Positions 2,794-28,384 of a stretch of DNA of 42,284 nucleotides are shown in pieces. Position 1 is the first letter of the stretch, and each line of letters starts with the position of its first letter. The notes under the pieces are model-generated. The model searched no databases. It had not been told where the DNA came from and was given only the letters and a program-made list of their open reading frames with translations. Source of the DNA: a virus (lineage: Duplodnaviria > Heunggongvirae > Uroviricota > Caudoviricetes). The position numbers and the translations under genes were made by a program. Where the stretch lies: IMG/VR virus record IMGVR_UViG_2675903409_000014. One strand, given 5' to 3'.

Positions 2794-5394
2794 TTGCATA
2801 TTCCTTAGCCCAGCGGGGCAGTGATAACGTCTTAATAGCTGGCCATTCATCGGTATTGAGGCAGTCAGCCAGGGTTCGCAGATTGCGGTGATATTCCAGC
2901 TGACCTGCCAGTTTTGCTTCTTCGCCCATCATGAAAATTTCAACCGGATAACGTCCGCATTCAATAGTTGTGCTGGCAACCAGAAAAACGAAAGTTGGCT
3001 GCACTCCAAACTGTGCTTCATAACCGTCACTGTAGAATGCATCCTGAACGTGATAGCGGTAGTCGTAATAAGCGGTTTTGAATCGTTGAATATCCGCCGT
3101 AGTTTTCACGTCCATGATCCAGTGAAATTCAGGGATAATTTTGTCCGGACGGCACCGACACAAAATTGCTGTTTCAGGATCTTCCCAGTAAATTGATGAT
3201 TCAGCGTGTCCGGCGCTTTCAACAAGCCATTGCCCCAGCGGCAAAGCCATAACGCTCTGATACATGAGTTCAATTTTCCGGCCTTCTTCGGCAGTGATAA
3301 CCGTTTTTCCTGTGCTTGCGCATTCCCTCAGAAACGCTTTCTCTTCTTCTTTTCCGGAGTTTGTCCGGCGGTTAAATTCAGGTGCTACGATAAAGCGGTT
3401 ACTGAATTCTTCCGGCTCAAGTACCCGGCAGTGGAAAGCGGTTCCTAAATCGAGCGTTTTTGTCTTTGTGGTGTCCACGGGGGCATTTTTACGCCACAAA
3501 TACAGTGCCGGAGTATCAGCAATGTCATCGAGCTGAGACTTACTGACACCGGGACCCGCGTGGTAATTCTCATTCGAAATTCCGTAATAAATACCNNNNN
3601 NNNNNNNNNNNNNNNNNNNNNNNNNNNNNNNNNNNNNNNNNNNNNNNNNNNNNNNNNNNNNNNNNNNNNNNNNNNNNNNNNNNNNNNNNNNNNNNNNNNN
3701 NNNNNNNNNNNNNNNNNNNNNNNNNNNNNNNNNNNNNNNNNNNNNNNNNNNNNNNNNNNNNNNNNNNNNNNNNNNNNNNNNNNNNNNNNNNNNNNNNNNN
3801 NNNNNNNNNNNNNNNNNNNNNNNNNNNNNNNNNNNNNNNNNNNNNNNNNNATTTCCGGTTCCTGTTGCACTACTGGCTCAGGTTGATTCATATCCGGGCT
3901 GGTTTTTTCCGTTTCTGGCTGGTTCTGGTACACACAATCGCGAGTCTGGATCCCCTTTACCCATTTCGGATCGTTCGGGTCGCTAATTCCGTCAACAAAT
4001 TCACCACGTGATGCAGCAAGCAATTTATCGGCATCGACAGGATTTTTTGATGGAATGTTTTTCCGGGCTTCATGGAGTTCTGCCCGCAGTTCCTGATATT
4101 TCGCATCAACAGAATTTACCTGTGACTGAGCATCCAGCGGCTGCGTGTCCTGATGATGTTCAGTTGCGTCCGGTTCCATTGTTTCAGCCTCTCCCTGTTC
4201 AACTGCCGTTGTTCCAGATGGTTGCGGTTTTTCTTCATCATCCTGTTTTCCTTCTTCTGTTACTCGCTGCGGCATCGGGGCAGAGGAGCGACCGCAGGCA
4301 ATATCCACGATTTCCGGATCAGGGTTGGCATGATCGGTTTCAGTCAGTACTTTGTTCAGATATTCAGTGACGTGCGCGGGGATGACCTCGATCCCAATTG
4401 GTGCTTCTTTTACGGACGCAACCACGATGGCGCGGGAATAATCCAGCCCGCCAGGCATGGTGATGAATTTGTCGCGGAAAACAGAAAAGGGCGGTTTATT
4501 TTCAGCGATAATTTCCTCAATGCGTTTAGCGTGTGCCGGATGAAGGTTATAGATGTCCAGATCCATTGAACGGGCCAGTACGCCAGTGGCTACGTCCCGC
4601 GCCAGTGACGTCAGATCGTGTACGAAACCTTCGCCGCGATCGGTGAGGTTTCCGCCGCCAGCATTAGCACCGGAAGCCGTGCGAGTGATGTGTGAAACAC
4701 GATTACCCTTCATCCACTCTTTTGTCAGCAGTCCTCGATCGGTGTAGTCAGCGTTCAGGTATGCTTCGAAAAAAGCAGTTATCAGTCCCAGGTTTGAATT
4801 ACCAGGATTAGGGAAAACTTTGTCAGTGTCACGAACCAGTTTGTGGAGTTCGCGAATTTCCAGCGGGTCGAGCAGGCTGGTTTTGTGGGAAACAGCCAGG
4901 GCAGTAACAGCCGGTAGTTCTTCAGCCCGAGCAATGTGTAATGCCTGGAGTCCGTCGCGTGAAACGTGCGTTACCGGTTTTTCGCTGCCGTGTTGAGCAA
5001 GCCAACGAATGGGCAGTTCCTGGCCAGAAATTGGGAGTAGCATATTCTCCTCAATCTCAGTCATGTCTTCGCCGTTGACGTTGGTATTGCCTTGATAGTG
5101 AGCGTTGTCTGGTGCTGCTCCCGGTTTTAGTTCCCATGTCATGGAGTCTTTGCTGAGTTGATAGCGTTCACTCCAGGTAAAATCGATCTCACCTTCAGCG
5201 GGCAGGTCATTAACGACAGGAAAATTCGTGGCAACAGCTTTAAAATAGCTGCTCAGTTTTTTACCTGACTTAACGATCAGGTAGTCCAGAGTGGCACAGG
5301 TCGATTCAAAATCGTTGCTTGCCCACAGGACGACGTCAGGTTCACCGGATGATTTTTTCGCTTTCCGTAACAGGAAGAGTGGTTTTGTGCTCAT
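2786..5394 (-). CDS. recE: RecE exonuclease VIII (interrupted by N-run 3596-3850)
   Basis: N-terminal [32 protein letters not shown]... and C-terminal ORF ending ...[11 protein letters not shown] match RecE; frame break coincides with N-run; 8-nt overlap with recT. Confidence 0.9.
3596..3850. other. Undetermined sequence (N-run) inside recE
   Basis: 255 N. Confidence 1.
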
Positions 5395-7754: not shown

Positions 7755-8192
7755 TTAAGAGGCTTTTTGTTTTTTCTTTCGTGCTAGCTCTTCGTAAATT
7801 GCATTGTACTTCTGTTTTTTCTCCTCAAGAGTTTTTAAAAGTTCATCTGTCTCACTGTCAGGGAGCTCGTCCAGAAGGTCAATGATGATTTTTTGTCTTG
7901 GATTTAACTCCTGATAGAAACGTACCTGTCCACTTTCTTCTGTATCCTCTCCCAAAAGATAGGTTGGTGTTGTTCCAATGAGTGTTGCTAATTCCCTTAA
8001 TTTCTCTCGGCGAGGAATTGTTTCGCCATTAAACCATTTGCTAACCGCTTTTGGTGTTAATTTCATTCGACGGGCAATTTCTGCCTGCCTTCCATGTTGT
8101 TCATAACCAGCGTTTTCACAGGCTAGCGCAAGCCTACTGGCGAACTCTTTACGCGCTTTATCTTCATGAACCATAAGTTCAATGATATTCAC
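7755..8192 (-). CDS. racR: RacR prophage repressor (HTH)
   Basis: 145-aa ORF MNIIELMVHEDKARKEFASRLALACENAGY...; divergent from ydaS-ydaT as in Rac; first codon is GTG, alternative ATG at 8174. Confidence 0.8.
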   Translation of the reverse strand: MNIIELMVHEDKARKEFASRLALACENAGYEQHGRQAEIARRMKLTPKAVSKWFNGETIPRREKLRELATLIGTTPTYLLGEDTEESGQVRFYQELNPRQKIIIDLLDELPDSETDELLKTLEEKKQKYNAIYEELARKKKQKAS

Positions 8193-8253
8193 TCTTGAAT
8201 GTACTGTCAGTTCTGTTATAGCATGTACTCAAAGTTCACATTGTGAGGGTGAT
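8193..8253. promoter_or_regulatory. racR / ydaS divergent control region with repeated TGTACT motifs
   Basis: 61-bp divergent intergenic region; TGTACT at 8200-8205 and 8224-8229, same hexamer as the cluster near 7640-7678. Confidence 0.4.
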
Positions 8254-8508
8254 ATGAACCAGAAAACACTTGAAGATGTAATCAAAACTGTTCGCGTTTC
8301 TGTTGTGGCCGACGTTTGTGGTGTCAGCCAAAGAGCAATCTACAAATGGATGGATAACGGAAAATTGCCTCGCACAGAATATACCGGCGAAACAAATTAC
8401 GCTGAAAAAATCGCTCATGCATCAAACGGATTATTTTCTGCTGATGTAATTTTAACTATTGGCAGAAATAAAACTACTACGAAAAAGCTGATGGGAGTTG
8501 ATTCATGA
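8254..8508 (+). CDS. ydaS: YdaS-like HTH protein (Cro-position)
   Basis: MNQKTLEDVIKTVRVSVVADVCGVSQRAIYKWMDNGKLPR...; SD gaggg upstream; alternative upstream start 8182 would overlap racR. Confidence 0.7.
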   Translation: MNQKTLEDVIKTVRVSVVADVCGVSQRAIYKWMDNGKLPRTEYTGETNYAEKIAHASNGLFSADVILTIGRNKTTTKKLMGVDS

Positions 8509-8927
8509 AAATCAAGCATGAGCACATCGAGTCAGTGTTGTTAGCCCTGGCAGCCGAAAAAGGGCAGGCATGGGTAGCCAATGCCATTACTGAAGAATAT
8601 CTGCGCCAGGGGGGCGGCGAATTGCCCCTGGTACCAGGCAAGGACTGGAATAATCAGCAGAATATCTATCACCGTTGGTTGAAAGGTGAAACGAAAACGC
8701 AAAGAGAAAAAATTCAGAAGCTGATCCCAGCAATTCTGGCAATCCTTCCGCGCGAGCTGCGTCACCGACTCTGCATCTTCGATACCCTGGAACGCCGTGC
8801 ATTACTGGCGGCGCAGGAAGCGTTAAGTACGGCAATTGATGCGCATGATGATGCAGTCCAAGCCGTTTACCGGAAAGCGCATTTCAGCGGCGGCGGGTCT
8901 TCCGACGATTCTGTCATTGTTCATTAA
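8505..8927 (+). CDS. ydaT: YdaT
   Basis: 140 aa MKIKHEHIESVLLALAAEKGQAWVANAITEEYL...; ATGA overlap with ydaS stop. Confidence 0.8.
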   Translation: MKIKHEHIESVLLALAAEKGQAWVANAITEEYLRQGGGELPLVPGKDWNNQQNIYHRWLKGETKTQREKIQKLIPAILAILPRELRHRLCIFDTLERRALLAAQEALSTAIDAHDDAVQAVYRKAHFSGGGSSDDSVIVH

Positions 8928-8990
8928 GCAAAAGTTTCCATGCTGTTTGTGCTTATTCTAAGCCACCGGGCAGCATCATACGGGGCAATT

Positions 8991-9810
8991 ATGGCCGCAT
9001 TACCATACATGCAACTGTACATAGCTGATTACCTGGCTGACACCATGCATTTGTCAGCAGAGGAGCATGGTGCGTATTTGTTGCTGATGTTCAATTACTG
9101 GCAAACAGGAAAGCCAATACCTAAAAACAGGCTGGCAAAAATTGCCCGTCTNNNNNNNNNNNNNNNNNNNNNNNNNNNNNNNNNNNNNNNNNNNNNNNNN
9201 NNNNNNNNNNNNNNNNNNNNNNNNNNNNNNNNNNNNNNNNNNNNNNNNNNNNNNNNNNNNNNNNNNNNNNNNNNNNNNNNNNNNNNNNNNNNNNNNNNNN
9301 NNNNNNNNNNNNNNNNNNNNNNNNNNNNNNNNNNNNNNNNNNNNNNNNNNNNNNNNNNNNNNNNNNNNNNNNNNNNNNNNNNNNNNNNNNNNNNNNNNNN
9401 NNNNNGAACATGATGTCAACACAAAGGCAACTAATAAAGATACAGATAAAGATCTAAAAACAGATCCCCCCCTAAATCCCCCCCGGGGGAATCGAGGTGT
9501 CAAAAAGTTTGACCCTCTGGATATTGCTTTGCCGAACTGGATTTCTGTCTCGCTTTGGCGTGAGTGGGTTGAATTTCGCCAGGCATTGCGAAAACCGATT
9601 CGAACGGAGCAGGGCGCTAACGGGGCGATACGGGAGCTGGAAAAATTCCGCCAGCAGGGTTTTTCACCTGAGCAGGTGATTCGACACAGCATCGCCAATG
9701 AATACCAGGGCTTGTTCGCGCCGAAAGGTGTTCGACCTGAGACGTTACTCCGACAGGTTAACACCGTCTCGTTACCGGATAGTGCGATCCCGCCAGGCTT
9801 CAGGGGGTAA
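8991..9810 (+). CDS. ydaU: YdaU-like replication protein (interrupted by N-run 9152-9405)
   Basis: N-terminal [40 protein letters not shown]... and C-terminal ...[36 protein letters not shown]...; frame break coincides with N-run. Confidence 0.75.
9152..9405. other. Undetermined sequence (N-run) inside ydaU
   Basis: 254 N. Confidence 1.
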
Positions 9811-9816
9811 CTGACC

Positions 9817-10563
9817 ATGAAAAATATTGCGACAGGCGACGTTCTTGAACGTATCCGCAGACTGGCCCCGTCACATGTAACCGCGCCATTCAAGACGGTA
9901 GCGGAGTGGCGCGAGTGGCAACTTTCCGAAGGCCAGAAACGTTGTGAGGAGATCAACCGTCAGAATCGTCAGTTGCGGGTGGAAAAAATTCTGAATCGCT
10001 CTGGCATCCAGCCATTGCACCGCAAATGCTCGTTTTCGAATTACCAGGTGCAGAACGAAGCGCAGCGATACGCGTTGAGTCAGGCGAAATCCATCGCTGA
10101 TGAACTGATGACCGGGTGTACAAATTTTGCGTTCAGCGGAAAACCTGGTACCGGGAAGAACCACTTAGCGGCAGCTATCGGGAATCGCCTGCTGAAAGAC
10201 GGTCAGACAGTGATTGTGGTTACCGTGGCTGATGTTATGAGTGCCCTGCACGCCAGCTATGACGATGGGCAGTCAGGCGAAAAATTTTTGCGGGAACTAT
10301 GCGAAGTGGATCTGCTGGTTCTTGATGAAATTGGCATTCAGCGCGAGACGAAAAACGAGCAGGTGGTGCTGCACCAGATTGTTGATCGCCGGACAGCGTC
10401 GATGCGCAGCGTGGGGATGCTGACAAACCTGAACTATGAGGTGATGAAAACATTGCTCGGCGAGCGGGTGATGGATCGCATGGTCATGAACGGCGGGCGC
10501 TGGGTGAATTTTAACTGGGAGAGCTGGCGTCCGAATGTTAGCCATTCGAGGGTTGTTAAGTAG
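9817..10563 (+). CDS. ydaV: YdaV, DnaC-like replication ATPase
   Basis: 248 aa with Walker A GKPGTGKNHLAAAIG and Walker B LLVLDEIG; matches recalled YdaV. Confidence 0.9.
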   Translation: MKNIATGDVLERIRRLAPSHVTAPFKTVAEWREWQLSEGQKRCEEINRQNRQLRVEKILNRSGIQPLHRKCSFSNYQVQNEAQRYALSQAKSIADELMTGCTNFAFSGKPGTGKNHLAAAIGNRLLKDGQTVIVVTVADVMSALHASYDDGQSGEKFLRELCEVDLLVLDEIGIQRETKNEQVVLHQIVDRRTASMRSVGMLTNLNYEVMKTLLGERVMDRMVMNGGRWVNFNWESWRPNVSHSRVVK

Positions 10564-10577
10564 TTTCAGGAGGATTT

Positions 10578-11000
10578 ATGGCGAAACCTTTTACTCCCGA
10601 ACAGCGGGAAGAACTGAAGACGCGAATTGTGGAACTCGTGCATCAGGACGGTCGGGTCACGATTCGGCAGTTGTCAGATGAAACAGGTATCAGTCGTGCG
10701 TCTGTCGGTCGCTTATGCATAGAACTGGTCGCAAGTGGTGATGTATATAATTCTGGCTACGGCTTATTCCCGTCTGAACAGGCTCGCAAGGACTGGCAAA
10801 GCGCCCGCAAAAAACTCTCGAGAGTAAAGGTGAGGAAACCGGTTGTTGTTGATCCGGACCTTATCTGGTCATTACCTGACGGAGAAATACGCCGCTACGA
10901 CAGGCGCCTGAATATAATCTGTCGCGAGTGCCGGAAGAGCGAAGCTATGCAGCGTGTACTGGCTTTCTATCAGGGTAATTTTCAGGAGGCGATACTGTGA
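10578..11000 (+). CDS. Hypothetical nin-region protein at the ydaW position (paralog of 14496..14912)
   Basis: 140 aa; SD aggagg 6 nt upstream of ATG; C-terminal approx 90 aa nearly identical to the second copy (GDVYNSGYGLFPSEQARKDW...RRYDRR.NIICRECRKSE). Confidence 0.7.
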   Translation: MAKPFTPEQREELKTRIVELVHQDGRVTIRQLSDETGISRASVGRLCIELVASGDVYNSGYGLFPSEQARKDWQSARKKLSRVKVRKPVVVDPDLIWSLPDGEIRRYDRRLNIICRECRKSEAMQRVLAFYQGNFQEAIL

Positions 11001-11414
11001 ATGAAATTAGCTATCAGGCTTCAATTACCGCTGGCATTCGCATCAAAGGAGAGGAGCATGGAAATAAAACCAGAAGATGAGTTAAGCAATATCGTTTTAT
11101 TTCCGGTAAAAGAGGATGACCCTCGTAATCAGGTTAATTTTCTTTATGAGCCATCGGAAAGACCATATTGCCATCACGCCTCTGTACGGGTTGACGAAAA
11201 AGAGCGTCAGGTCCGCTGTAAAATCTGCGGTGCGGTTGTGGAGCCGTTTGACTGGATGCTCTCTGTGGCAAAAAGAGAAACCAGACTGGCAGATGATGTA
11301 AGGCTATTGCGCCAGGAGGAACAGGAAAGGCGGAGAAATATAGAAAAGCTGATACAGATTGAGCGTAACGCGAAAGCGCGGATACGCAGGGCGACAAAAT
11401 CCAGAACTGAATAA
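11001..11414 (+). CDS. Hypothetical zinc-ribbon protein
   Basis: 137-aa ORF; CHH...RCKICG cysteine motif; alternative start at 11058 (MEIKPEDEL) with SD aaggagaggag. Confidence 0.55.
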   Translation: MKLAIRLQLPLAFASKERSMEIKPEDELSNIVLFPVKEDDPRNQVNFLYEPSERPYCHHASVRVDEKERQVRCKICGAVVEPFDWMLSVAKRETRLADDVRLLRQEEQERRRNIEKLIQIERNAKARIRRATKSRTE

Positions 11415-11561
11415 TTAAATTTAGCACTGTTAAAAATTTAATCCTTAACCGGAGGGATTTCTGCACCCTCAAATCATCAGGAGACCACCCGAAAGGGCGG
11501 GGAGCAGTCACACATCTGTTTCCGATAGCCCCGTTCTAATGCTACACTCTTTGATATTTTT

Positions 11562-12248
11562 ATGACCCCAATAAACATATTTATGACAGTTGCTGATTTC
11601 AAACGGCCCAAATTGGAGCTCCCAAACGGGGCAAACAAACTACTACTGCACTCTTGCTGTGCTCCATGTTCCGGTGAGGTGATGGAGGCGCTTCAGGCCT
11701 CGGGAATCGACTACACCATCTTTTTCTACAACCCGAACATTCATCCTCAGAAAGAGTATTTAATTCGTAAGGATGAGAATATTCGCTTTGCTGAACAACA
11801 CGGCGTGCCGTTTATTGATGCTGATTACGACACAGACAACTGGTTTGAACGAGCCAAAGGAATGGAATGGGAGCCCGAACGAGGGATCCGTTGCACCATG
11901 TGTTTTGACATGCGTTTTGAGCGGACAGCGCTGTACGCCGCTGAAAATGGTTTCAGTGTGATCAGCAGTTCACTGGGCATTTCACGCTGGAAAAATATGC
12001 AGCAGGTTAACGACTGTGGGCGGCGAGCCGTCGCGCATTATCCGGGCATGGTGTACTGGGATTATAACTGGCGCAAGCAGGGCGGCTCGTCCCGTATGAT
12101 TGAAATCAGCAAGCGCGAAAAATTCTATCAGCAGGAATATTGTGGCTGTGTGTATTCTCTGCGCGATACCAATCTACACCGCAAATCTCAGGGACGCCCT
12201 CTTATCAAAATTGGTCAACTCCACTACGGTAAAGAAGAGAAGGAGTGA
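11562..12248 (+). CDS. QueH/DUF208-like protein (epoxyqueuosine reductase family)
   Basis: 228 aa with [19 protein letters not shown] and QEYCGCVYS motifs recalled as hallmarks of DUF208/QueH. Confidence 0.7.
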
Positions 12249-12270
12249 TTTTATGGGGCACCTTTCTGAT

Positions 12271-12520
12271 NNNNNNNNNNNNNNNNNNNNNNNNNNNNNN
12301 NNNNNNNNNNNNNNNNNNNNNNNNNNNNNNNNNNNNNNNNNNNNNNNNNNNNNNNNNNNNNNNNNNNNNNNNNNNNNNNNNNNNNNNNNNNNNNNNNNNN
12401 NNNNNNNNNNNNNNNNNNNNNNNNNNNNNNNNNNNNNNNNNNNNNNNNNNNNNNNNNNNNNNNNNNNNNNNNNNNNNNNNNNNNNNNNNNNNNNNNNNNN
12501 NNNNNNNNNNNNNNNNNNNN
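12271..12520. other. Undetermined sequence (N-run) after QueH-like gene
   Basis: 250 N. Confidence 1.
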
Positions 12521-12696
12521 AGTGACGGCACTGGTAACGAGGAAAGACCTCTGTGAGGTACGAATCCGAACCGGCCAGACGGAGGTCGCTGTCTTCGTAG
12601 ACTACGAATCCAGGAAGTAAGAGTGACCGGGCGGGGAGCTGATCCCATCCCCGCCCACCTCTGATGTGTCAGGCATCCTCAACGCACCCGCACTTA

Positions 12697-12742
12697 ACCC
12701 GCCCATCGCTGTGATCTCTCAGCGTTTCGGCGGGTTTTTTGT
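12697..12742 (+). terminator. Rho-independent terminator
   Basis: Stem CCCGCC (12698-12703) / GGCGGG (12729-12734) with inner CGCTG/CAGCG pairing, followed by TTTTTTGTTGTTT. Confidence 0.6.
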
Positions 12743-12869
12743 TGTTTATTTCCGGTGAATTTGATTCGCGCACCTTCGCAGATAGAATCGACTCACTTAA
12801 GTAGCGCGCAGGGAGAAGAGGGATGGACCCCGAACAGGGGAGAGCTATTTATCTGGAAGGATTCTGAAG

Positions 12870-13157
12870 ATGAAAATCGAAGAATTGCGTGAAATTTTTA
12901 GTGAAAATGGCCTCTATGCTGTGCGCGTTGAGAATGGAGCGATTGTCAGCCATTGCCGCATTAGATGTTTGCAATCTCAACAAAGGAAGAGCGGTGCTGT
13001 GTTATTTTATTTTTGTAATGGACTTCTGACGGACGGTTTTATTTTGCGTGAGGACGAATTTGTCACATCATTACGGGTTTTGAAAGAGATTGGTTTTAAG
13101 GCTGGTTTTCTGCTTTTGCTGAAGAATAAACTCATCTACAATCTTGAGCAGGATTGA
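12870..13157 (+). CDS. Hypothetical protein
   Basis: 95-aa ORF with SD ggaagga 8 nt upstream; upstream TTGATT-16-TAGAAT promoter-like elements. Confidence 0.5.
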   Translation: MKIEELREIFSENGLYAVRVENGAIVSHCRIRCLQSQQRKSGAVLFYFCNGLLTDGFILREDEFVTSLRVLKEIGFKAGFLLLLKNKLIYNLEQD

Positions 13158-13195
13158 ACTCCTGCTGTGTAACACCGTGCCACCGGAGAAAGCCG

Positions 13196-13444
13196 ATGGC
13201 ACATATACAACTGGTCAAACAAACCTCTTCCGGATTACTTCTCCCGGCGACGCCGGAGAGTTGCGATTTTCTGCATCAAATCAAAATAGGTGAGTGGATA
13301 CACGCAGACTTTAAGCGTGTGTGTAACTACGCATTCCACAAGCGTTTTTTCAAACTCCTGCAACTGGGTTTCGATTACTGGACTCCGGTCGGTGGGGCGA
13401 TCACGCCTCGCGAACGAAAACTGGTGTCCGGTTTCGTTGATTAC
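13196..13444 (+). CDS. nin-region protein, partial copy (3' part masked by N-run), paralog of 18863..19462
   Basis: MAHIQLVKQTSSGLLLPATPESCDFLHQIKIGEWIHADFKRV...; about 97 percent nt identity to 18863-19111. Confidence 0.55.
13196..13444 (+). repeat. Direct repeat copy A (about 249 bp visible, truncated by N-run)
   Basis: About 8 mismatches in 249 nt versus 18863-19111. Confidence 0.8.
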
Positions 13445-13694
13445 NNNNNNNNNNNNNNNNNNNNNNNNNNNNNNNNNNNNNNNNNNNNNNNNNNNNNNNN
13501 NNNNNNNNNNNNNNNNNNNNNNNNNNNNNNNNNNNNNNNNNNNNNNNNNNNNNNNNNNNNNNNNNNNNNNNNNNNNNNNNNNNNNNNNNNNNNNNNNNNN
13601 NNNNNNNNNNNNNNNNNNNNNNNNNNNNNNNNNNNNNNNNNNNNNNNNNNNNNNNNNNNNNNNNNNNNNNNNNNNNNNNNNNNNNNNNNNNNNN
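13445..13694. other. Undetermined sequence (N-run) inside nin-region repeat gene copy A
   Basis: 250 N. Confidence 1.
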
Positions 13695-13718
13695 AATTTT
13701 TACCGGGAGGAAATTTTT

Positions 13719-14480
13719 ATGGAGACTGTTTTTGACGCACTGAAAGCAATGGGAAAAGCCACATCCATAGAACTTGCTGCGCGACTTGATATCAGTCGTG
13801 AAGAAGTGCTGAACGAACTATGGGAACTGAAAAAAGCTGGTTTCGTTGATAAAAGCGCGTACACCTGGCGTGTGGCTGATAACAACGTTCAGCAGGAACA
13901 GCCAATGCAGGCAGAACTGCCGGAAGAAACCACCACGGCAACTGTAGTGAAAATCTCAGAGTGCGATTTAACCGCGACGATTGAACAACGCGGACCACAA
14001 ACGGCGGATGAACTGGCTACGCTGTTCGGTACAACATCCCGCAAAGTTGCTTCAACGCTGGCAATGGCAATCAGCAAAGGACGCCTGATTCGCGTAAACC
14101 AGAACAGTAAATTTCGTTACTGCATGCCGGGCGATAATTTACCAGCAGAGCCGAAAGCTGCATCGGTAGCGGAAACTGATGGTAAAGCCTTTCCTCAGCC
14201 AGCCGGTGTTGCGTTACCAGTACAGGAAGCGGCAACACAGGAAGATATTAAAACAGAAACTGTGGCGGACATTGTGCAGTCGCTGCCATCGTTTACTGAA
14301 ACGCAAGCGGATGACCTAGTTTTACCATCGCTGCATATGGCAAACCGCGAACTGCGTCGGGCGAAAAATCATGTCCAGAAGTGGGAGCGAGTCTGCGCCG
14401 CGCTGCGGGAGCTGAACAAGCACCGGGATATTGTCCGACAGATTGTCGATTCCTCCAGTCGTATTGTGTCGGAAAAGTGA
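13719..14480 (+). CDS. Hypothetical protein, probable winged-helix N-terminus and acidic linker
   Basis: 253 aa [45 protein letters not shown]...; SD gggagg upstream; first codon right after N-run. Confidence 0.65.
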
Positions 14481-14495
14481 TTGCCGGAGGCGCTT

Positions 14496-14912
14496 ATGGC
14501 AAAAGTTTTTACACAGGAAGAGCGTGAAAAAATTAAGGAGCAGGTTGTTGAGTTGGTACGCCAGAGTGGGCGCGAGACGTTAAGGCAACTGGAGGCCAAG
14601 ACAGGTGCGACAAGATATCTGATGAGCATTCTTGCCAGAGAGTTGGTTGCCAGTGGCGATGTATACAACTCTGGCTATGGGTTATTCCCGTCTGAACAGG
14701 CTCGTAAGGATTGGAAAAACGCCCGCAAAAAACTATCCAGGGCAAAGGTGAAAAAAACGGTTGTGGTTGATCCTGACCTTATCTGGTCATTACCAGACGG
14801 AGAAATACGCCGCTATGACAGGCGTCAGAACATAATCTGTCGCGAGTGCCGGAAGAGTGAAGTTATGAAACGTGTACTGGCATTTTATCAAGGAAATCTT
14901 CGGTATTTATAG
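14496..14912 (+). CDS. Hypothetical nin-region protein, second paralog of 10578..11000
   Basis: MAKVFTQEEREKIKEQVVELVRQSGRETLRQLE...; SD ggagg upstream of ATG at 14496 (track ORF starts at TTG 14481). Confidence 0.7.
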   Translation: MAKVFTQEEREKIKEQVVELVRQSGRETLRQLEAKTGATRYLMSILARELVASGDVYNSGYGLFPSEQARKDWKNARKKLSRAKVKKTVVVDPDLIWSLPDGEIRRYDRRQNIICRECRKSEVMKRVLAFYQGNLRYL

Positions 14913-15050
14913 ACGTTACTAGATCAAAGAGCATTAGTTCATATGTAAATTGACATTTTTCTGGCACAGGGGAGAGCTAGCGTGGTTGTCCGCTTTGTGC
15001 CAATAGCGGACATTGCTGGCTCATGGTATGTTAGTTTAAGGAGGCAGGTT

Positions 15051-16073
15051 ATGCCCTGTATTTCGCTGTGGTATAATAGTTGCGCAATTGATACAAGGGA
15101 GCGTTACATCGTGAAAATTGTTTTCGAGGTTAATGGAAAGAAAGTTCCACTAAAATCTTTAAAATACATAAGCAAAAAAGATCAACTCGAAGTAATGAAA
15201 AACTGGTTCTTTGAAAACTTTGAAGATCCGGCAAATGCTTGTCCGTATGAAAGTAGAGAAGGTGGCTATGCTTACATATATGGCGGGCCGTATGATGCGA
15301 GCGAAGAACTACAATCCATCTTCGGTCAATATGTTAAATCTGAGTATATTGAGGAATTAGTAGATGAATTACAAACACAATGTTTTGACTGGTCTGGAAA
15401 CTCAAATAATATAGATGATTGGTACGATGATGATATCTACGACGCTGTAACGTCTTCCGGTAATCCGTATTTAAAATTCATTGATAATATCGATAAAATA
15501 AAAAAACTTGCAAAAGATAAAACTGAACAACAGCAAAAAAACCACTTGCTTAGTTTGCTCTACACGAATGTTATTACAGCTTTGGAAACGCTTTATGTTG
15601 AGCTATTCATTAATTCTATAGAGAAAGATGATGTCTACATAGCCAATTGTATAGAAAAAGGTAAGACTGAATTTAAAGTAAGCAAAGATATTGCTGCGTT
15701 GCCTTTCAAGGGTGAACCCATCGAGAAAATTAGGGGAGAGCTAATCAGGTCAATCAAGGAACACTTGATCAGTGCAAGCTGGCATAGCACTAAAAAGGTA
15801 ATCGACCGCTATGAAGCTACATTCGATATAAAAGTACAAAAAGACTGTCCGATAGAAGCTATTGAATTGGCAACCCTCAATCGAAATCACTTAGTGCATC
15901 GTGGTGGAAAGGATAAAGAAGGGAACCTCGTAGTGATTACAGACCAGGATCTTGAAACGCTGATTGAAAATGCATCGAACCTGGCAATTATGCTCTACAA
16001 CAGTTTAAATGTAGCAACGAATAAAACCACCATTTTGCAACCAGATGACAAACCGTTCATTCATGAATTTTAA
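15051..16073 (+). CDS. Uncharacterized protein A of A+T-rich cassette; C-terminal HEPN-like Rx4H motif
   Basis: Strong SD taaggagg 6-7 nt before ATG 15051; alternative GTG 15111 preceded by TGgTATAAT and aagggag; A+T-rich; motif LNRNHLVHRG. Confidence 0.65.
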   Translation: MPCISLWYNSCAIDTRERYIVKIVFEVNGKKVPLKSLKYISKKDQLEVMKNWFFENFEDPANACPYESREGGYAYIYGGPYDASEELQSIFGQYVKSEYIEELVDELQTQCFDWSGNSNNIDDWYDDDIYDAVTSSGNPYLKFIDNIDKIKKLAKDKTEQQQKNHLLSLLYTNVITALETLYVELFINSIEKDDVYIANCIEKGKTEFKVSKDIAALPFKGEPIEKIRGELIRSIKEHLISASWHSTKKVIDRYEATFDIKVQKDCPIEAIELATLNRNHLVHRGGKDKEGNLVVITDQDLETLIENASNLAIMLYNSLNVATNKTTILQPDDKPFIHEF

Positions 16074-16088
16074 TAGCGCAGGTCATAC

Positions 16089-17090
16089 ATGGATATTCGC
16101 ACACGAAAGACAAAATTTTTAGAGTCGTTAGATTCAACTGAAGTGATACGCAAAGCAGTAAGTCTCGCTATAGATTGCATTATTGATAATCATAATAGTA
16201 ATGAAGATACCCCCTTAGTTATTACCAGCTATGATGATCTCTGTAGAATCCAGGTGCTAAATTATGTACAGGAGTTTTGCGAAGCTGCATTCCCTGATAT
16301 GGATGAATATTACTTTAGTCCTAACATACTTCGCATCAACGGCAAGACTAGTGAAGAAGCTTGTATTAACTTAATTAAACTCTTAAGAAGTACAAAAGGC
16401 ATGCTATTCTGGTCCGATGCCCCATCGTGGTTCGCTAGCCTCCCCGACGGATTATTCCATGTTGTTAACATTGATCAAAAAATCGTTACTCGCGGCCTTA
16501 ATAAGAAAAACTCTAAGCCGACAATAATCAATAAAGATTACAGTGTAGATACACTACTATCAGAGCTATTTTTGAATGGCGCACACATGGAGCAACCCAA
16601 CGTACACAACGTTTCTGAGGGAAACATGAAGTTCTATGATGAATGCCATGCTGGATTAATCAGACCAATACCCGCTCCAATAGGCGCGTCATACGATGAA
16701 GAGATCACAATTAATTCTCCAGATTGGCAAAAGCTCGCGTGTGTAGCTTTACGCCGCTATCAGTCGAAGGAATGTCATGACGGAATGCAATGGGATACAA
16801 CCGATCATGGTTGGACTGATGTAATCGCGTATCCATTCGTCGAAGAAATACAATCAATGGATAATAGTGGTTATCGACAATGTTTAGTTGGGCTGGTCAC
16901 AATAAACAATTCAAATGCAAATTCTCCGTACCTATCTACCGTTTGGATACATCCATTTTATCGCAGGAGAGGGTTATTAAGTAAGTTATGGCCAAAATTA
17001 CAAGAGTTATATGGAAGTAACTTCGAAATTGAGCGACCTAATGAAAATATGAAAGCATTTCTGAAAAGTGCGAAACACGCAGATTACTAA
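16089..17090 (+). CDS. Uncharacterized protein B of A+T-rich cassette; C-terminal GNAT-like motif
   Basis: 333-aa ORF 15 nt after gene A; VWIHPFYRRRGLLSKLWPKL resembles GNAT acetyl-CoA motif A. Confidence 0.7.
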   Translation: MDIRTRKTKFLESLDSTEVIRKAVSLAIDCIIDNHNSNEDTPLVITSYDDLCRIQVLNYVQEFCEAAFPDMDEYYFSPNILRINGKTSEEACINLIKLLRSTKGMLFWSDAPSWFASLPDGLFHVVNIDQKIVTRGLNKKNSKPTIINKDYSVDTLLSELFLNGAHMEQPNVHNVSEGNMKFYDECHAGLIRPIPAPIGASYDEEITINSPDWQKLACVALRRYQSKECHDGMQWDTTDHGWTDVIAYPFVEEIQSMDNSGYRQCLVGLVTINNSNANSPYLSTVWIHPFYRRRGLLSKLWPKLQELYGSNFEIERPNENMKAFLKSAKHADY

Positions 17091-17642
17091 TTTATGAATC
17101 AGTCTGTGGAGTTAGGGTTGGTGTGAACAAGTAGGGTAAGAGCCTCAACGTGATGCTATGCCGACCTGCTCCCTGAGAATTCACACAGAAGGCTGCTAGC
17201 AATGTCTGCAGATCGCTCAAAGCGGACTAAAATGTTGGCTTGTTTCTGACTTAGAGCATTTAAGGAAGTGCTGGTGGTGACTGGTTGTTGTGTTCCATTT
17301 CTACAGAATAAAATCACAGAAACTATACCCAATAGTTGTATTGAATCACTGACGAGACAGCCTCATATTTATCAGGACTGGTGTGCGTCTAATACAGGGG
17401 GTTGTCGTGCTGGTTCTCAAATGTGCGCTGGCTATTGCGGCTGTAATGGCAATTTATTGTCTTGCTGTTGTTCTTATGGAGCGGCTTTCTGATTGATTAC
17501 ATACTGGCTAGAAAAAAGGTGTTACCTTGGTTTATCTTTGTCCGGCAAGGTGCGCTCATTAATCTTAAGTAAATTTATTGCTCAAGTATTCAGATTACTT
17601 CTTATGGTTGAAGTCTCCTGTCAATGTAGAACCAATATATTT

Positions 17643-17681
17643 ACAAAAATGAGACCCGTCGGGGATAGCCCTGCCGGGTCT
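17643..17681 (-). terminator. Rho-independent terminator of the YeaR-like gene
   Basis: Minus-strand hairpin AGACCCG...CGGGTCT followed by CATTTTTG, just past the stop at 17711. Confidence 0.55.
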
Positions 17682-17710
17682 GACTGTTAAAGCATTTTTA
17701 ATATGATCAT

Positions 17711-18049
17711 CTATTTTTTGGTGCTATAGACTTTTTCGCCCGAAAAGTCTGGAGCGACCCAAAAGTTAATATTAAACTGAGCATCATCGCTTAGTTCAAC
17801 ACGGTGCCAGTATTGTGGTGGGCTTGTTGCAAAAGCGCCAGCATTAATGACTACTTTTATCTCCGGTTCAGTAGCATTCTCATCAGTAAAACCATAATAT
17901 GTTACAGTGCCTTCCATTACGCACAACTGCCCAAAAACACCTGCTGCTGTATTATGATGTGTTAATAACGCTGAAGGTACGTTCTCTTTTGTGAAGAACG
18001 GAGTTGAGCGTTTGATTACCCAATCTTTAGGAATTCTCTTGTGTGTCAT
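17711..18049 (-). CDS. YeaR-like DUF1971 (TehB-related cupin-like) protein
   Basis: KRSTPFFTKENVPSALLTHH...VMEGTVTYYGFTDENATEPE...FNINFWVAPD parallels recalled YeaR; SD ggagg before MTHKRIP start. Confidence 0.7.
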   Translation of the reverse strand: MTHKRIPKDWVIKRSTPFFTKENVPSALLTHHNTAAGVFGQLCVMEGTVTYYGFTDENATEPEIKVVINAGAFATSPPQYWHRVELSDDAQFNINFWVAPDFSGEKVYSTKK

Positions 18050-18862
18050 AACCACCTCCTCCAAAACATGCATTAAAAATGCATCTTTTGGAGGGTTATG
18101 TCAAGCTGTTATGAAACACATAATTGATATGTTGATTAGAGGAGAAGATAGAATAAATATGGTTGTTTTTCGTATAACTATTTGTTTTACTTTTAGTTTA
18201 TGCATTCTGTGTGTTAGGAATAAGTTATTAAAGTTTAATCAAAAAATCTCGATGTAGTCCACATAGATTACTGTTACTGAACCTTATTGTGTGTATTAGT
18301 TGTGTTCTGAAATTTCAGCTTAATTATTTATGATGTATTTTTTAACGATAAATATTTTCCCAGGATACCTTTACTGTGTATATAAATAAATTATATACGC
18401 ATAAATAATGTAAAGGCGTCCTTTTAGATATATCTTATCAAATGTTAATGACTTGAGTGGGAAATATGATTCCAGCAACTTATCATGTGGCTACTTTATA
18501 AAAATAATGCCCATATAAAACAACAAGCGAAAAGGATTACGGATAAAAAAGGAGCGAGATGTGCGAACTTGTTATTTTCCATGTTTAACCACCTTAAATA
18601 ATTGATGATGACGGGATGATTGCATCTGTAATGCTTTTATTGAAATGTTATGATAAAAAAGAACTTTTGCATAACATTAAAATGTAATTTATCTAATCGT
18701 TTTTAATAATAAGTGTCGTATTTCTATCCTTGTACCAGCTATTTGATATGTAGTGTTTGTTCATGCTATGTGGGGCTTTACACCATAGCCAGTTTATTTA
18801 TACTTTATTCGTCAGCCTGAACAACTGGCATCTGCTGCGCTGCGCCATCGAGAGATTGAGAA

Positions 18863-19111
18863 ATGGCGCATATACAACTGGTCAAACAAACCTCTTCTGG
18901 TTTACTTCTCCCGGCGACGCCGGAGAGTTGCGATTTTCTGCATCAAATCAAAATAGGTGAGTGGATACACGCAGACTTTAAGCGTGTGCGTAACTACGCA
19001 TTCCACAAGCGTTTTTTCAAACTCCTGCAACTGGGATTCGATTACTGGACTCCGGTCGGTGGGGCGATCACGCCTCGCGAACGAGAACTGCTGTCTGGTT
19101 TCGTTGATTAC
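18863..19111 (+). repeat. Direct repeat copy B
   Basis: Matches 13196-13444 at about 97 percent identity. Confidence 0.8.
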
Positions 19112-19752: not shown

Positions 19753-20273
19753 TTTACCCAACGAATACAGNNNNNNNNNNNNNNNNNNNNNNNNNNNNNN
19801 NNNNNNNNNNNNNNNNNNNNNNNNNNNNNNNNNNNNNNNNNNNNNNNNNNNNNNNNNNNNNNNNNNNNNNNNNNNNNNNNNNNNNNNNNNNNNNNNNNNN
19901 NNNNNNNNNNNNNNNNNNNNNNNNNNNNNNNNNNNNNNNNNNNNNNNNNNNNNNNNNNNNNNNNNNNNNNNNNNNNNNNNNNNNNNNNNNNNNNNNNNNN
20001 NNNNNNNNNNNNNNNNNNNNTGATGCAGAGGCGTTATGTATTGATCGAGTCATAAGTGAGGTGCTGGCAGAGCATCCAGGATTGATTTGCATTCTCCGGC
20101 AACGCTATGAAGGGCGGGGGATGACTAAGCGCAAAATGGCTGAATTGCTAAATGATGCACACCCAGAGTGGTGTTTTAGCACATGCGAAAAACGGATTGC
20201 TAATTGGTTAGCTGTTGCTGAGTATGCCCTATATATTCCCATGCGTGAATCATTTGCTGAGAAAATGGCTTGA
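19749..20273 (+). CDS. Late-gene antiterminator Q-like (interrupted by N-run 19771-20020)
   Basis: Position immediately upstream of late leader and terminator; ATGA overlap with previous stop; C-terminus ...QRYEGRGMTKRKMAELLNDAHPEWCF...; family by position mainly. Confidence 0.6.
   Translation: MIYPTNTXXXXXXXXXXXXXXXXXXXXXXXXXXXXXXXXXXXXXXXXXXXXXXXXXXXXXXXXXXXXXXXXXXXXXXXXXXXXXXXXXXXXDAEALCIDRVISEVLAEHPGLICILRQRYEGRGMTKRKMAELLNDAHPEWCFSTCEKRIANWLAVAEYALYIPMRESFAEKMA
19771..20020. other. Undetermined sequence (N-run) inside Q-like gene
   Basis: 250 N. Confidence 1.
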
Positions 20274-20726: not shown

Positions 20727-21317
20727 GGGCTGGTTTATTGTATGCCAAATGATTATTAAAAAGGTTGTGTTAATAACAAGATCCGAAATAATATGCCTGC
20801 ATATTTTTATCTTGCTTATATTCTGCATATTGTGCATAGCAGGCTCATCCCTGCAATCAAAACTGTATGATGAGTATTTTTTGTTTTCCTTTTTTCCAGT
20901 CATCTGATGATGACCTGCTTCTTTTTAATCCGGATCGACATCAGTTTTTTAAGATAATTCCTGCGAGTTATATGCATAAATGCCACAAACTCCGCATTTT
21001 ATGTGGTTGGGAGTTGCCGGGCGCGCAGTGAGTTTGCTAAGAAAACTCCTGCATGGTGAATCCCCCTGTGCGGTGGGGTGATACCATTAACCTTTTCTGT
21101 CGCCGACAGGTATCACGAACATTTTGTTCACCGGGAGGCACCCGGCACCATGCACTTCAATAGATTCTCTCCACATTATGGATATTCTTTCAGAATATCC
21201 CACGCAGACTTTGTGTAAATGTTAACAAATGTGCGTTTTATTTGATCTGATTCGCTGTTTGAGCGTCCAAAACAACGGTATATATAATCCTTTACTATAT
21301 GACATATGTGAGGAAAA

Positions 21318-22759: not shown

Positions 22760-23208
22760 TGCCTCCATCATTACGAAAAGTCGTTGCTGCTGCTATTGGT
22801 GGCGGAGCAATTGCTATAGCATCAGTGTTAATCACTGGCCCAAGTGGTAACGATGGTCTGGAAGGTGTCAGCTACATACCATACAAAGATATTGTTGGTG
22901 TATGGACTGTATGTCACGGGCATACNNNNNNNNNNNNNNNNNNNNNNNNNNNNNNNNNNNNNNNNNNNNNNNNNNNNNNNNNNNNNNNNNNNNNNNNNNN
23001 NNNNNNNNNNNNNNNNNNNNNNNNNNNNNNNNNNNNNNNNNNNNNNNNNNNNNNNNNNNNNNNNNNNNNNNNNNNNNNNNNNNNNNNNNNNNNNNNNNNN
23101 NNNNNNNNNNNNNNNNNNNNNNNNNNNNNNNNNNNNNNNNNNNNNNNNNNNNNNNNNNNNNNNNNTCGTGAGATTGAGCGTGAAGTCTGTTTGTGGGGGC
23201 AGCAATGA
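22759..23208 (+). CDS. SAR endolysin, lysozyme (interrupted by N-run 22926-23165)
   Basis: N-terminus [55 protein letters not shown] is a Gly/Ala-rich signal-anchor-release domain; C-terminus [13 protein letters not shown]; TAATG overlap with holin. Confidence 0.85.
22926..23165. other. Undetermined sequence (N-run) inside endolysin gene
   Basis: 240 N. Confidence 1.
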
Positions 23209-27305: not shown

Positions 27306-28384
27306 ATGAGCAGACCGGACTGGGGGGCGTTGCAGCAGGAGTATATTGCTGAATACACCCGCTCCGGTATATCTCCGGTGGCATGGTGTGAAGCAAGGGG
27401 ACTGAATTACGCAACAGCCCGTCGTTACATCAAAAAAACTCCGAAAAATGCGCAGACAGAAATGTGCAAANNNNNNNNNNNNNNNNNNNNNNNNNNNNNN
27501 NNNNNNNNNNNNNNNNNNNNNNNNNNNNNNNNNNNNNNNNNNNNNNNNNNNNNNNNNNNNNNNNNNNNNNNNNNNNNNNNNNNNNNNNNNNNNNNNNNNN
27601 NNNNNNNNNNNNNNNNNNNNNNNNNNNNNNNNNNNNNNNNNNNNNNNNNNNNNNNNNNNNNNNNNNNNNNNNNNNNNNNNNNNNNNNNNNNNNNNNNNNN
27701 NNNAGCAACGCCAGTCGTATGCTTAGAAATGCCAGGGTTTTTCGCGCTATCAGCTACTTCCGCAATCAGTACCAGAAACGCTATACCGCAGACCTGGATT
27801 TACTAGTGAGTCAGTTGATGGCTATTGTCCTGGCCGACCCCAATCAGCTTGCACAATTTCGCCGTGTTAACTGCCGTTATTGCTGGGGCGAGAATCATCT
27901 CTACCAGTGGCGCGATATAGCAGAATTCGACAAGGCAGCGGCGCAGGCTTCCAGAGATGGCAAACCCGAACCGGAATATGGAGGCCTCGGCTTTGTTGAT
28001 AACGCCATACCCAATCCGGACTGCCCGAAGTGCTGCGGTGAGGGAACGGGACAGCTTTATATGGCTGATACCACTCTGCTTGATGGGGATGCGCGGCAAT
28101 TATATGCAGGGGCAAAATTCGGAAAATTCGGCGTTGAGATCCTGCTGGAGGATAAGGCTGCCGCCCGGCGTGAATTGTTGCGTTTGTTTTCTGCTGGCGG
28201 GGCTTTATGTGCAGATAAGCGGCTACGGGAACTGGAAATTGAACGGCGCAGAATGGAAAACCAGAAGCTGCGCAAAGAGATCGAAACGGTGGAAGATAAT
28301 GAACATCCCCAGCCTGTGGCGATCAATATTAATGTGGTTGATGCCAGAGTAAGGAGTGATGAAGATGATCTCTCCGACGCTTAA
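27306..28384 (+). CDS. Terminase small subunit (interrupted by N-run 27470-27703)
   Basis: N-terminal HTH-like GISPVAWCEARGLNYATARRYIKK; C-terminal part ends 29 nt inside terminase large subunit start; frame break at N-run. Confidence 0.65.
27470..27703. other. Undetermined sequence (N-run) inside terminase small subunit gene
   Basis: 234 N. Confidence 1.

Follow-up and report, generated by a model that had tools for sequence, protein, structure and literature searches.

Two adjacent genes at positions 15,051 to 17,090 of the viral record IMGVR_UViG_2675903409_000014 (42,284 nt, hereafter the window) raise the question of whether they form an undescribed defence or toxin module in which a HEPN-like and a GNAT-like protein act as a pair, as a first-pass annotation had proposed. 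Residue-by-residue comparison places this two-gene cassette with a system already known. The DefensePredictor study (Science 2026, PMC13092281) validated the proteins WP_014639476.1 and WP_000354965.1 as DS-33, with the working name 'GNAT'. The sequences in its supplement match the window at 320/320 residues for the product of the first gene (A, DS-33A) and at 332/333 residues for that of the second (B, DS-33B). The sole difference is residue 289 of B, which is proline in the window and leucine in the tested clone. Gene order and spacing are also alike. The module had thus already been published, and the window carries another copy of a system that was predicted, cloned and mutated in that 2026 paper.

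The published DS-33 came from an E. coli assembly of the ECOR collection (GCF_003334765.1, NZ_QOWT01000046.1, 6922-8901) and was cloned together with the region predicted to hold its native promoter, using a low-copy plasmid in MG1655 (PMC13092281). Table S7 of that study gives log10 protection values from plaque assays in two replicates. Wild-type DS-33 gave 3.8/2.6 against T7, 3.3/2.4 against T3, 4.0/2.0 against Bas67, 5.0/5.9 against Bas26 and 0.8/0.1 against T5 (PMC13092281). On the same five phages the values were at most 0.54 when the HEPN gene was deleted, and at most 0.78 when arginine 258 of its product was replaced by alanine (R258A) (PMC13092281). With the GNAT gene deleted they were 4.8/4.3 (T7), 3.3/3.3 (T3), 4.0/3.3 (Bas67), 5.0/4.9 (Bas26) and 1.7/0.5 (T5) (PMC13092281). 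A plaque-assay check of the kind that the first-pass annotation had suggested was therefore already available for the ECOR copy, and it bore out the suspected defence function: protection amounted to 2-6 log against T7, T3, Bas67 and Bas26, and it was lost without the HEPN gene or with R258A. Defence requires A and its R258, and the L289 form of B is dispensable for it. The same anti-phage phenotype would be expected of the window copy, which is one residue off in the dispensable gene. DefensePredictor itself scored A at 9.45 and B low, at 1.08 and 3.20 in two tables (PMC13092281).

The main text of PMC13092281 contains no mechanism or discussion for DS-33. An accession-based literature search returned no match in main texts, DS-33 being found only in supplementary tables, and a domain-centric paper in Nucleic Acids Research (2026) made no mention of HEPN or GNAT. 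The PADLOC (2023) models, which had been named as a check on the locus, gave no meaningful match to the cassette and do not include DS-33. NCBIfam had no match for the two proteins. In PHROGs they matched, over their full length, only two families of 'unknown function', and megablast of the cassette against the INPHARED phages gave a match confined to 115 nt upstream. To the published work the present analysis adds an evolutionary dissection of the HEPN and GNAT genes as separable modules.

Protein A looks like a self-sufficient single-protein defence. The HEPN call had been based on LNRNHLVHRG, an Rx4H arrangement. This motif is present, and A has the four-helix up-and-down HEPN fold in a structure model with a predicted local distance difference test (pLDDT) score of 89.1. 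R258, H263 and R264 were invariant among 50 homologues of A, down to 26% identity. The window protein had no match to PF18735 (HEPN_RiboL-PSP) at E up to 1; this family is carried by many A homologues at 30-65% identity, in some of them weakly. HHblits in the DefensePredictor supplement assigned DS-33A to a RiboL-PSP-HEPN cluster with a probability of 96.1 (PMC13092281). A sequence search of the PDB with the A family profile gave no significant match.

The N-terminal part of A matched PF18870 (HEPN/RES-NTD1) with 21.8 bits (E 2.5e-4), below the gathering cut-off of 27.4, and PF18870 was annotated in about 25 clusters of A homologues. This N-terminal domain was the best conserved part of the protein, with invariant M29, W32, F33, P40, P45, G52, G58-P60 and F71. 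The invariant W94 lies just past the NTD1 match interval, inside the N-terminal domain. The architecture HEPN/RES-NTD1 plus HEPN was predicted computationally in 2013, and NTD1 is also joined to RES domains (PMC3710099). In viral contigs L058-L076, NTD1 was fused to a non-HEPN C-terminal region of about 150 amino acids (aa) with a G(I/M)GHNxPPEP motif and a hydrophobic tail (e.g. L059:4944-5888 and L062:4962-5747). This region matched no Pfam family and may represent a further class of effectors preceded by this N-terminal module. The fact that NTD1 is joined to HEPN, GHNxPPEP and RES regions indicates a portable module ahead of different effectors, common to DS-33A and other predicted effectors. 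In A it is presumed to be a sensor or regulatory module.

The structure model of B (pLDDT 89.4) has two domains, an N-terminal alpha/beta domain of 175 aa and a C-terminal GNAT domain. The motif VWIHPFYRRRGLLSKLWPKL, from which the GNAT call had been made, is present, and the C-terminal half has the GNAT fold, a mixed beta-sheet with the beta4-alpha3 element that binds coenzyme A. Against Pfam Acetyltransf_1, B scored 19.9 bits over aa 264-311 (cut-off 20.7), and some homologues were above the threshold. Motif A of B reads R-R-R-G-L-L, so that the final G/A of R/Q-x-x-G-x-G/A is replaced by L. No variation was seen at W286, H288, P289 and R292 among 37 full-length homologues; in small homologues of the GNAT domain (about 160 aa) the same residues W, H, P, F and R were likewise invariant. 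The N-terminal domain resembles AAA+/STAND folds; no Walker A motif was visible in its sequence or in conserved alignment columns.

A library-wide profile search showed that the two-domain form of B is rare (about ten clusters at 50% identity, all from gammaproteobacteria) and that proteins of about 160 aa related to its GNAT half alone are numerous. The PDB sequence search with the B family profile gave no significant match, and tblastn of the GNAT half against phages gave none. Three stand-alone homologues were viewed in context. One lay directly after rpoD in Aliiroseovarius (L110:5001-5510), another was in a satellite-like element with integrase and primase genes in Nitrosomonas (L111:5001-5483), and the last overlapped a DUF3987 primase-helicase gene on a phage contig (L112:4929-5411). 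No conserved partner was found beside them in these three contexts.

Among 5426 complete E. coli genomes, about 205-209 carried the cassette (~4%). It is a discrete mobile unit of about 2.1 kb, running roughly from 14988/15052 to 17132/17228. A and B are co-directional and 15 nt apart, as had been described, and both the upstream region and the 15-nt gap were kept wherever the cassette moved, in at least five contexts. The A/B protein identities to the window were 100/100% in E. coli Rac-type prophages, 98/95% in Serratia grimesii, 96/92% in viral contig L044, 87/78% in an Aeromonas defence island beside SIR2-STALD/TIR (Thoeris-like) genes, and 78/74% in a further context (L109). In the Aeromonas loci (L103-L106, ~8093-10963) the cassette adjoined TIR and SIR2-STALD/ThsB-TIR genes in a defence island, not a prophage, and in one Aeromonas strain it stood beside an integron-like resistance region. 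Insertions of the IS2 or ISSen4 family interrupted the cassette region in E. coli NZ_CP084096.1 and NZ_CP073936.1, and truncated forms of A or B were seen in viral contigs L084 and L101.

Both genes were also found apart. A occurred alone at L107 (76% identity, between housekeeping genes), in Dickeya (73%) and in Aeromonas (56%), as well as in all 10 viral loci at 56-74% identity and in distant relatives. Ten of the 12 species-level loci of B lacked A, as did those in three further look-ups; mobile-element genes were frequent neighbours (antirestriction/RadC, CbeA, DUF4400, HigBA, Abi_2). The B-only copies in Rahnella (L014:5816-6999) and in two viral contigs (L096:4817-5999 and L097:4878-5999) shared 86% protein and 90-92% nucleotide identity with the B gene of the window. 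When aligned to window positions 14987-15087 and 16010-17164, they showed the promoter region fused to what is left of A, its final 60-80 nt, with B intact behind it. The presence of two different junctions indicates that A was deleted at least twice. The ratio of nonsynonymous to synonymous substitution rates (dN/dS) of B was 0.16-0.45 in most comparisons and 0.06-0.31 between solo copies. B is under purifying selection, solo copies included.

That B is maintained after A is lost indicates a separate function for B on which selection can act, probably one connected with mobile elements; this point goes beyond PMC13092281. The linkage of A and B is that of co-transcribed cargo and not of obligate partners, which fits the deletion phenotypes: as separable modules, the two genes explain why deletion of the GNAT gene was without effect on defence. 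The functional HEPN/GNAT pair or toxin module that the first-pass annotation had put forward is thus unsupported, since GNAT deletion spares defence and each gene occurs and persists without the other.

A further point beyond PMC13092281 is that the GNAT gene has been tested functionally only in the form of a rare allele, in which an invariant motif residue is changed. DS-33B in the supplement of that paper has leucine at position 289 (PMC13092281). The residue lies in GNAT motif A (WIHPFYRRRG) and is proline throughout the full-length and the distant 160-aa homologues. The codon was CCA (Pro) in 209/209 complete E. coli genomes with the gene and CTA in none of them. In a collection of 15 billion proteins, 31 contigs had the L289 protein, against at least 1000 with the P289 form. 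L289 is a minority allele, and B carrying it may be hypomorphic. The statement that the GNAT gene is dispensable therefore covers the minority allele only, because the tested B carries P289L at an invariant proline. We think it rather unlikely that wild-type P289 B acts as an acetyltransferase to modulate DS-33A or broaden its range, or that it is a new single-gene conflict system in its own right. Possible targets of P289 B could be A, the RNA or tRNA substrate of A, or a phage or host protein. If P289 B were active in this way, the published dispensability result would have missed a role of B owing to the P289L clone.

In our judgement DS-33 is very probably mobile cargo with its own promoter, in which A is a self-contained HEPN defence and B an independent, co-transcribed passenger. 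A would consist of the N-terminal HEPN/RES-NTD1 domain fused to a ribonuclease (RNase) domain of the RiboL-PSP-HEPN type. HEPN enzymes typically dimerise and form a composite Rx4H RNase site (bioRxiv 10.64898/2026.02.22.705581). NTD1 would keep DS-33A inactive until a phage-derived cue appears, and infection by T7-like and some other phages would activate it. The activated HEPN domain would then cut cellular or phage RNA (tRNA or mRNA), and translation and phage growth would stop, probably as abortive infection or growth arrest. B, presumably transcribed together with A, would carry its GNAT acetyltransferase fold behind a degenerate P-loop-like domain and would stand outside the defence mechanism of A against the phages tested. 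Our best guess is that B is an independent conflict-related acetyltransferase, with a putative catalytic activity, and most likely its function also lies in conflicts that involve mobile elements.

Several observations weigh against this explanation. That the operon arrangement survived a protein divergence of about 25% speaks for a benefit from linkage. The dispensability of B was shown with the L289 clone, and the window has the P289 allele. Protection without the GNAT gene was equal or greater against T7, T3 and Bas67, with a gain of about 1-1.7 log on T7 in both replicates; such changes could mean that B damps A, or they could be an expression artefact of the deletion. On Bas26, protection without the GNAT gene was about 1 log lower in the second replicate (4.9 versus 5.9). 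The A protein of the window also falls below the PF18870 cut-off and lacks a PF18735 match at E up to 1. For DS-33A, the proposed RNase, trigger and abortive steps rest on family knowledge and one catalytic-residue mutant.

Some of these observations would be accommodated if A and B were a true two-component system in which the pair is the functional unit. B would then be an acetyltransferase holding back or adjusting the HEPN nuclease, whether in an antitoxin-like manner or by covalently modifying A or its RNA substrate. Conservation of the 15-nt-gap operon from 100/100% to 78/74% identity in at least five contexts would fit this arrangement, as would the increase in protection on GNAT deletion (+1.0 and +1.7 log on T7, +1.3 on Bas67 in one replicate) and the P289L change at the invariant motif-A proline of the tested B, which may be hypomorphic, so that the effect of wild-type B may be larger. 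We nevertheless regard a two-component system as improbable. The GNAT-deleted strain was viable and fully defensive, most A homologues are without an adjacent B, including the 76%-identical copy between housekeeping genes, and B persists under purifying selection after deletion of A. Moreover, marine gammaproteobacterial homologues of B never have A alongside, and the low DefensePredictor scores of B (1.08, 3.20) contrast with that of A (9.45). An ordinary toxin-antitoxin addiction module that stabilises the prophage, with a HEPN or GNAT toxin and an antitoxin, agrees with the two-gene layout on a mobile element, but it is largely refuted and its probability is very small. Either gene could be deleted in the published constructs without loss of viability, and both are found singly in nature. 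Neither A nor B matched an MNT or DUF1778/RHH family, the operon has no further small open reading frame (ORF), and the anti-phage phenotype depends on the catalytic arginine of the HEPN domain.

A separate possibility, to which we give somewhat less than an even chance, concerns B. It may be a second, independent single-gene conflict system sharing the promoter of A, so that the locus would be a two-gene mini defence island; B could provide defence against phages beyond the panel, counter-defence, or a host-modifying acetyltransferase serving the prophage. B alone in its L289 form, with the HEPN gene deleted, gave no protection against T7, T3, T5, Bas67 or Bas26, but in the B-only copies the promoter of the cassette is retained and the ORF is intact (dN/dS 0.06-0.31). 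The surroundings of B include antirestriction/RadC, CbeA, DUF4400 (a marker of integrative and conjugative elements), HigBA, Abi_2 and AAA_14/DUF4143 genes, and Thoeris in Aeromonas, and a phage contig and a satellite-like element each carry a stand-alone homologue of the GNAT domain. Some homologues, by contrast, have housekeeping neighbours (those in Neptunicella and the one after rpoD in Aliiroseovarius), and no PADLOC match was obtained. An independent conflict role of B is compatible with the preferred explanation, in which A is a self-contained defence and B a passenger, and would narrow what that explanation says of B.

Among known systems, the RiboL-PSP-HEPN family (PF18735) is represented in PD-T4-2 by its B protein; this E. 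coli defence has been validated (Vassallo et al. 2022, PMC9519451). The HHblits comparison in PMC13092281 links DS-33A to PD-T4-2_B (probability 96.1) over 55% of its length. However, the HEPN protein of PD-T4-2 is paired with a DUF262 (ParB-like) NTPase, whereas DS-33A has HEPN/RES-NTD1 instead and needs no partner. No DUF262 gene was found in the cassette, and the PADLOC models of PD-T4-2 gave no match to it. In DARNA/PD-T7-3, one HEPN protein cleaves the anticodon loops of tRNAs when T3, T5 or T7 infects (bioRxiv 10.64898/2026.02.22.705581), and it protects against these phages by abortive infection. It resembles DS-33A as a single-polypeptide HEPN defence with Rx4H and a non-catalytic sensor domain. 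Its HEPN domain is at the N-terminus, so that the order is reversed, it forms a dodecamer, and its sensor is Pds5-like, binds single-stranded DNA and is unrelated to that of DS-33A. Of the current models for the possible action of DS-33A, DARNA/PD-T7-3 is the best and the closest in logic.

The NTD1 plus HEPN architecture itself is shared with proteins described by Anantharaman et al. 2013 (e.g. KPK_1764 of Klebsiella), which were computationally predicted as toxins of conflict systems (PMC3710099). That study puts the NTD1 fusions in the MAE_28990/MAE_18760 HEPN families, whereas the A homologues are PF18735 by Pfam. No experiments on this architecture are known from before DS-33. Unlike HepT/MNT type II systems, DS-33 is without an MNT nucleotidyltransferase partner, its A protein is more than twice the size owing to the extra N-terminal domain, and A is not lethal when the neighbouring gene is deleted. 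The C-terminal half of B matches the folds of HAT1, ESCO1, MYST, alpha-tubulin acetyltransferase, SSAT and AAC, and like GNAT acetyltransferases B has a motif-A-like [IV]xPxxRxxG[ILV]. It differs from them in the additional 175-aa N-terminal alpha/beta domain without Walker A, and the PDB profile search found no solved structure that is a sequence relative of B.

The true start of A is the GTG at 15111, which gives a protein of 320 aa. An ATG at 15051 was considered and rejected. The homologues are 313-320 aa long and begin with MK(I/V)VF, the Prokaryotic Genome Annotation Pipeline (PGAP) starts A at GTG 15111, and the homology of the cassette elsewhere begins only at 15052-15088. The candidate -10 element also falls downstream of the ATG, between both possible starts. 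Taken together, homologue lengths and N-termini, the PGAP call, the homology boundary and the position of the -10 indicate the GTG.

The extended -10 reported upstream of the genes is indeed present, although it lies inside the ORF as first drawn, and a scan with the two-hexamer sigma-70 consensus did not pick it up, its match being not above chance. In the same scan, promoter-like sites were not enriched over shuffled sequences. The element is also conserved in other copies, lying upstream of the cassette or, where A was lost, upstream of B; from its pattern and conservation it is a candidate promoter of the cassette. Of the strong Shine-Dalgarno elements that had been claimed, the one ahead of A was seen, and the one ahead of B is weak. 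Nucleotide homology with the copies in Serratia, Rahnella and viral contigs begins at an inverted repeat further upstream, and in all contexts examined this repeat forms the left end of the cassette. It might act as an operator, end upstream transcription as a terminator, or be a boundary of recombination. No intrinsic terminator was found directly 3' of B, the nearest terminator-like sites being at 17431-17485. The coordinates of these and other features are given in Table 1.

Table 1. Features of the DS-33 cassette and of its surroundings, with positions in the window.
Feature	Position	Strand	Remark
Inverted repeat GTCCGC-N12-GCGGAC (GTCCGCTTTGTGCCAATAGCGGAC)	14988..15011	+	conserved, left edge of mobile cassette
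Extended -10-like TGgTATAAT = TGGTATAAT (TGGTACAAT in other copies)	15069..15077	+	read from sequence
Shine-Dalgarno-like AAGGGAG	15095..15101	+	9 nt before GTG of A; read from sequence
Gene A = DS-33A, WP_014639476.1, 320 aa	15111..16073	+	HEPN effector, needed for defence
N-terminal HEPN/RES-NTD1 domain of A, ~aa 20-95	15168..15395	+	sub-threshold Pfam match, homologues' annotation, conservation
HEPN domain of A, ~aa 120-308	15468..16034	+	
Rx4H motif codons R258-N-H-L-V-H263-R264	15882..15902	+	invariant in homologues
Gene B = WP_000354966.1, 333 aa	16089..17090	+	DS-33B except residue 289
GNAT-fold domain of B, ~aa 175-333	16611..17087	+	
GNAT motif A region STVWIHPFYRRRGLLSK	16938..16988	+	P289 codon CCA at 16953-16955
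Rfam small RNA matches: RalA, STnc100	1557-1735 and 21021-21207		
N runs	3596-3850, 9152-9405, 12271-12520, 13445-13694, 19771-20020, 22926-23165, 27471-27703		

In the window, a Rac-like E. coli prophage at ttcA carries the cassette as cargo within its nin-like region. Two small RNAs scored above the Rfam gathering score, the RalA antitoxin RNA typical of Rac (225 bits) and STnc100 (86.6 bits). An identical copy of the cassette was found in E. coli FORC_081, in a prophage at ttcA with intR, xisR, ralR, recET, kilR and sieB, where the gene order is DUF977, cassette, DUF1971, DUF1367, DUF1364, DUF1133. The position described for the cassette was confirmed: it lies between replication genes and the DUF1367/DUF1364/DUF1133 block. 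The low G+C content of the cassette was also real, but it was estimated too low at one third. The G+C content of 15051-17090 was 37.9%, as compared with 45.5% for the whole window and 48.6% at 8000-15000, and only 2.6% of 2040-nt windows were as low. The G+C content at third codon positions was 0.35 in A and 0.36 in B versus 0.49-0.53 in the neighbouring DUF977 and DUF1367 genes. The low-G+C tract runs on past B for 1.8 kb (17091-18862, 36.8%). The only gene in this part is a DUF1971 gene on the minus strand (17711-18073); no convincing ORF is seen in the remaining ~1.4 kb.

The paralog-flanked mosaic DNA noted around the cassette corresponds to a direct repeat of 249 nt (97% identity) at 13196-13444 and 18863-19111, which represents the 5' end of the DUF1367 gene. 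The first repeat copy extends into a masked stretch. The 5.7 kb segment between the repeats carries DUF1627, DUF977, A, B and DUF1971, and DUF977 is present twice in the window (10578-11000 and 14481-14912). In appearance the nin-like region is a tandem mosaic derived from two lambdoid prophages, and recombination could remove the cassette from it. Seven N runs of 233-255 bases each break several genes of the window, and ORF calls near them are unreliable (e.g. those at 13154-13735 and 13290-14480). The nin-like region also contains a homologue of QueH (epoxyqueuosine reductase) at 11562-12248 (Pfam E 1.9e-65), a tRNA-modification gene carried as prophage cargo.

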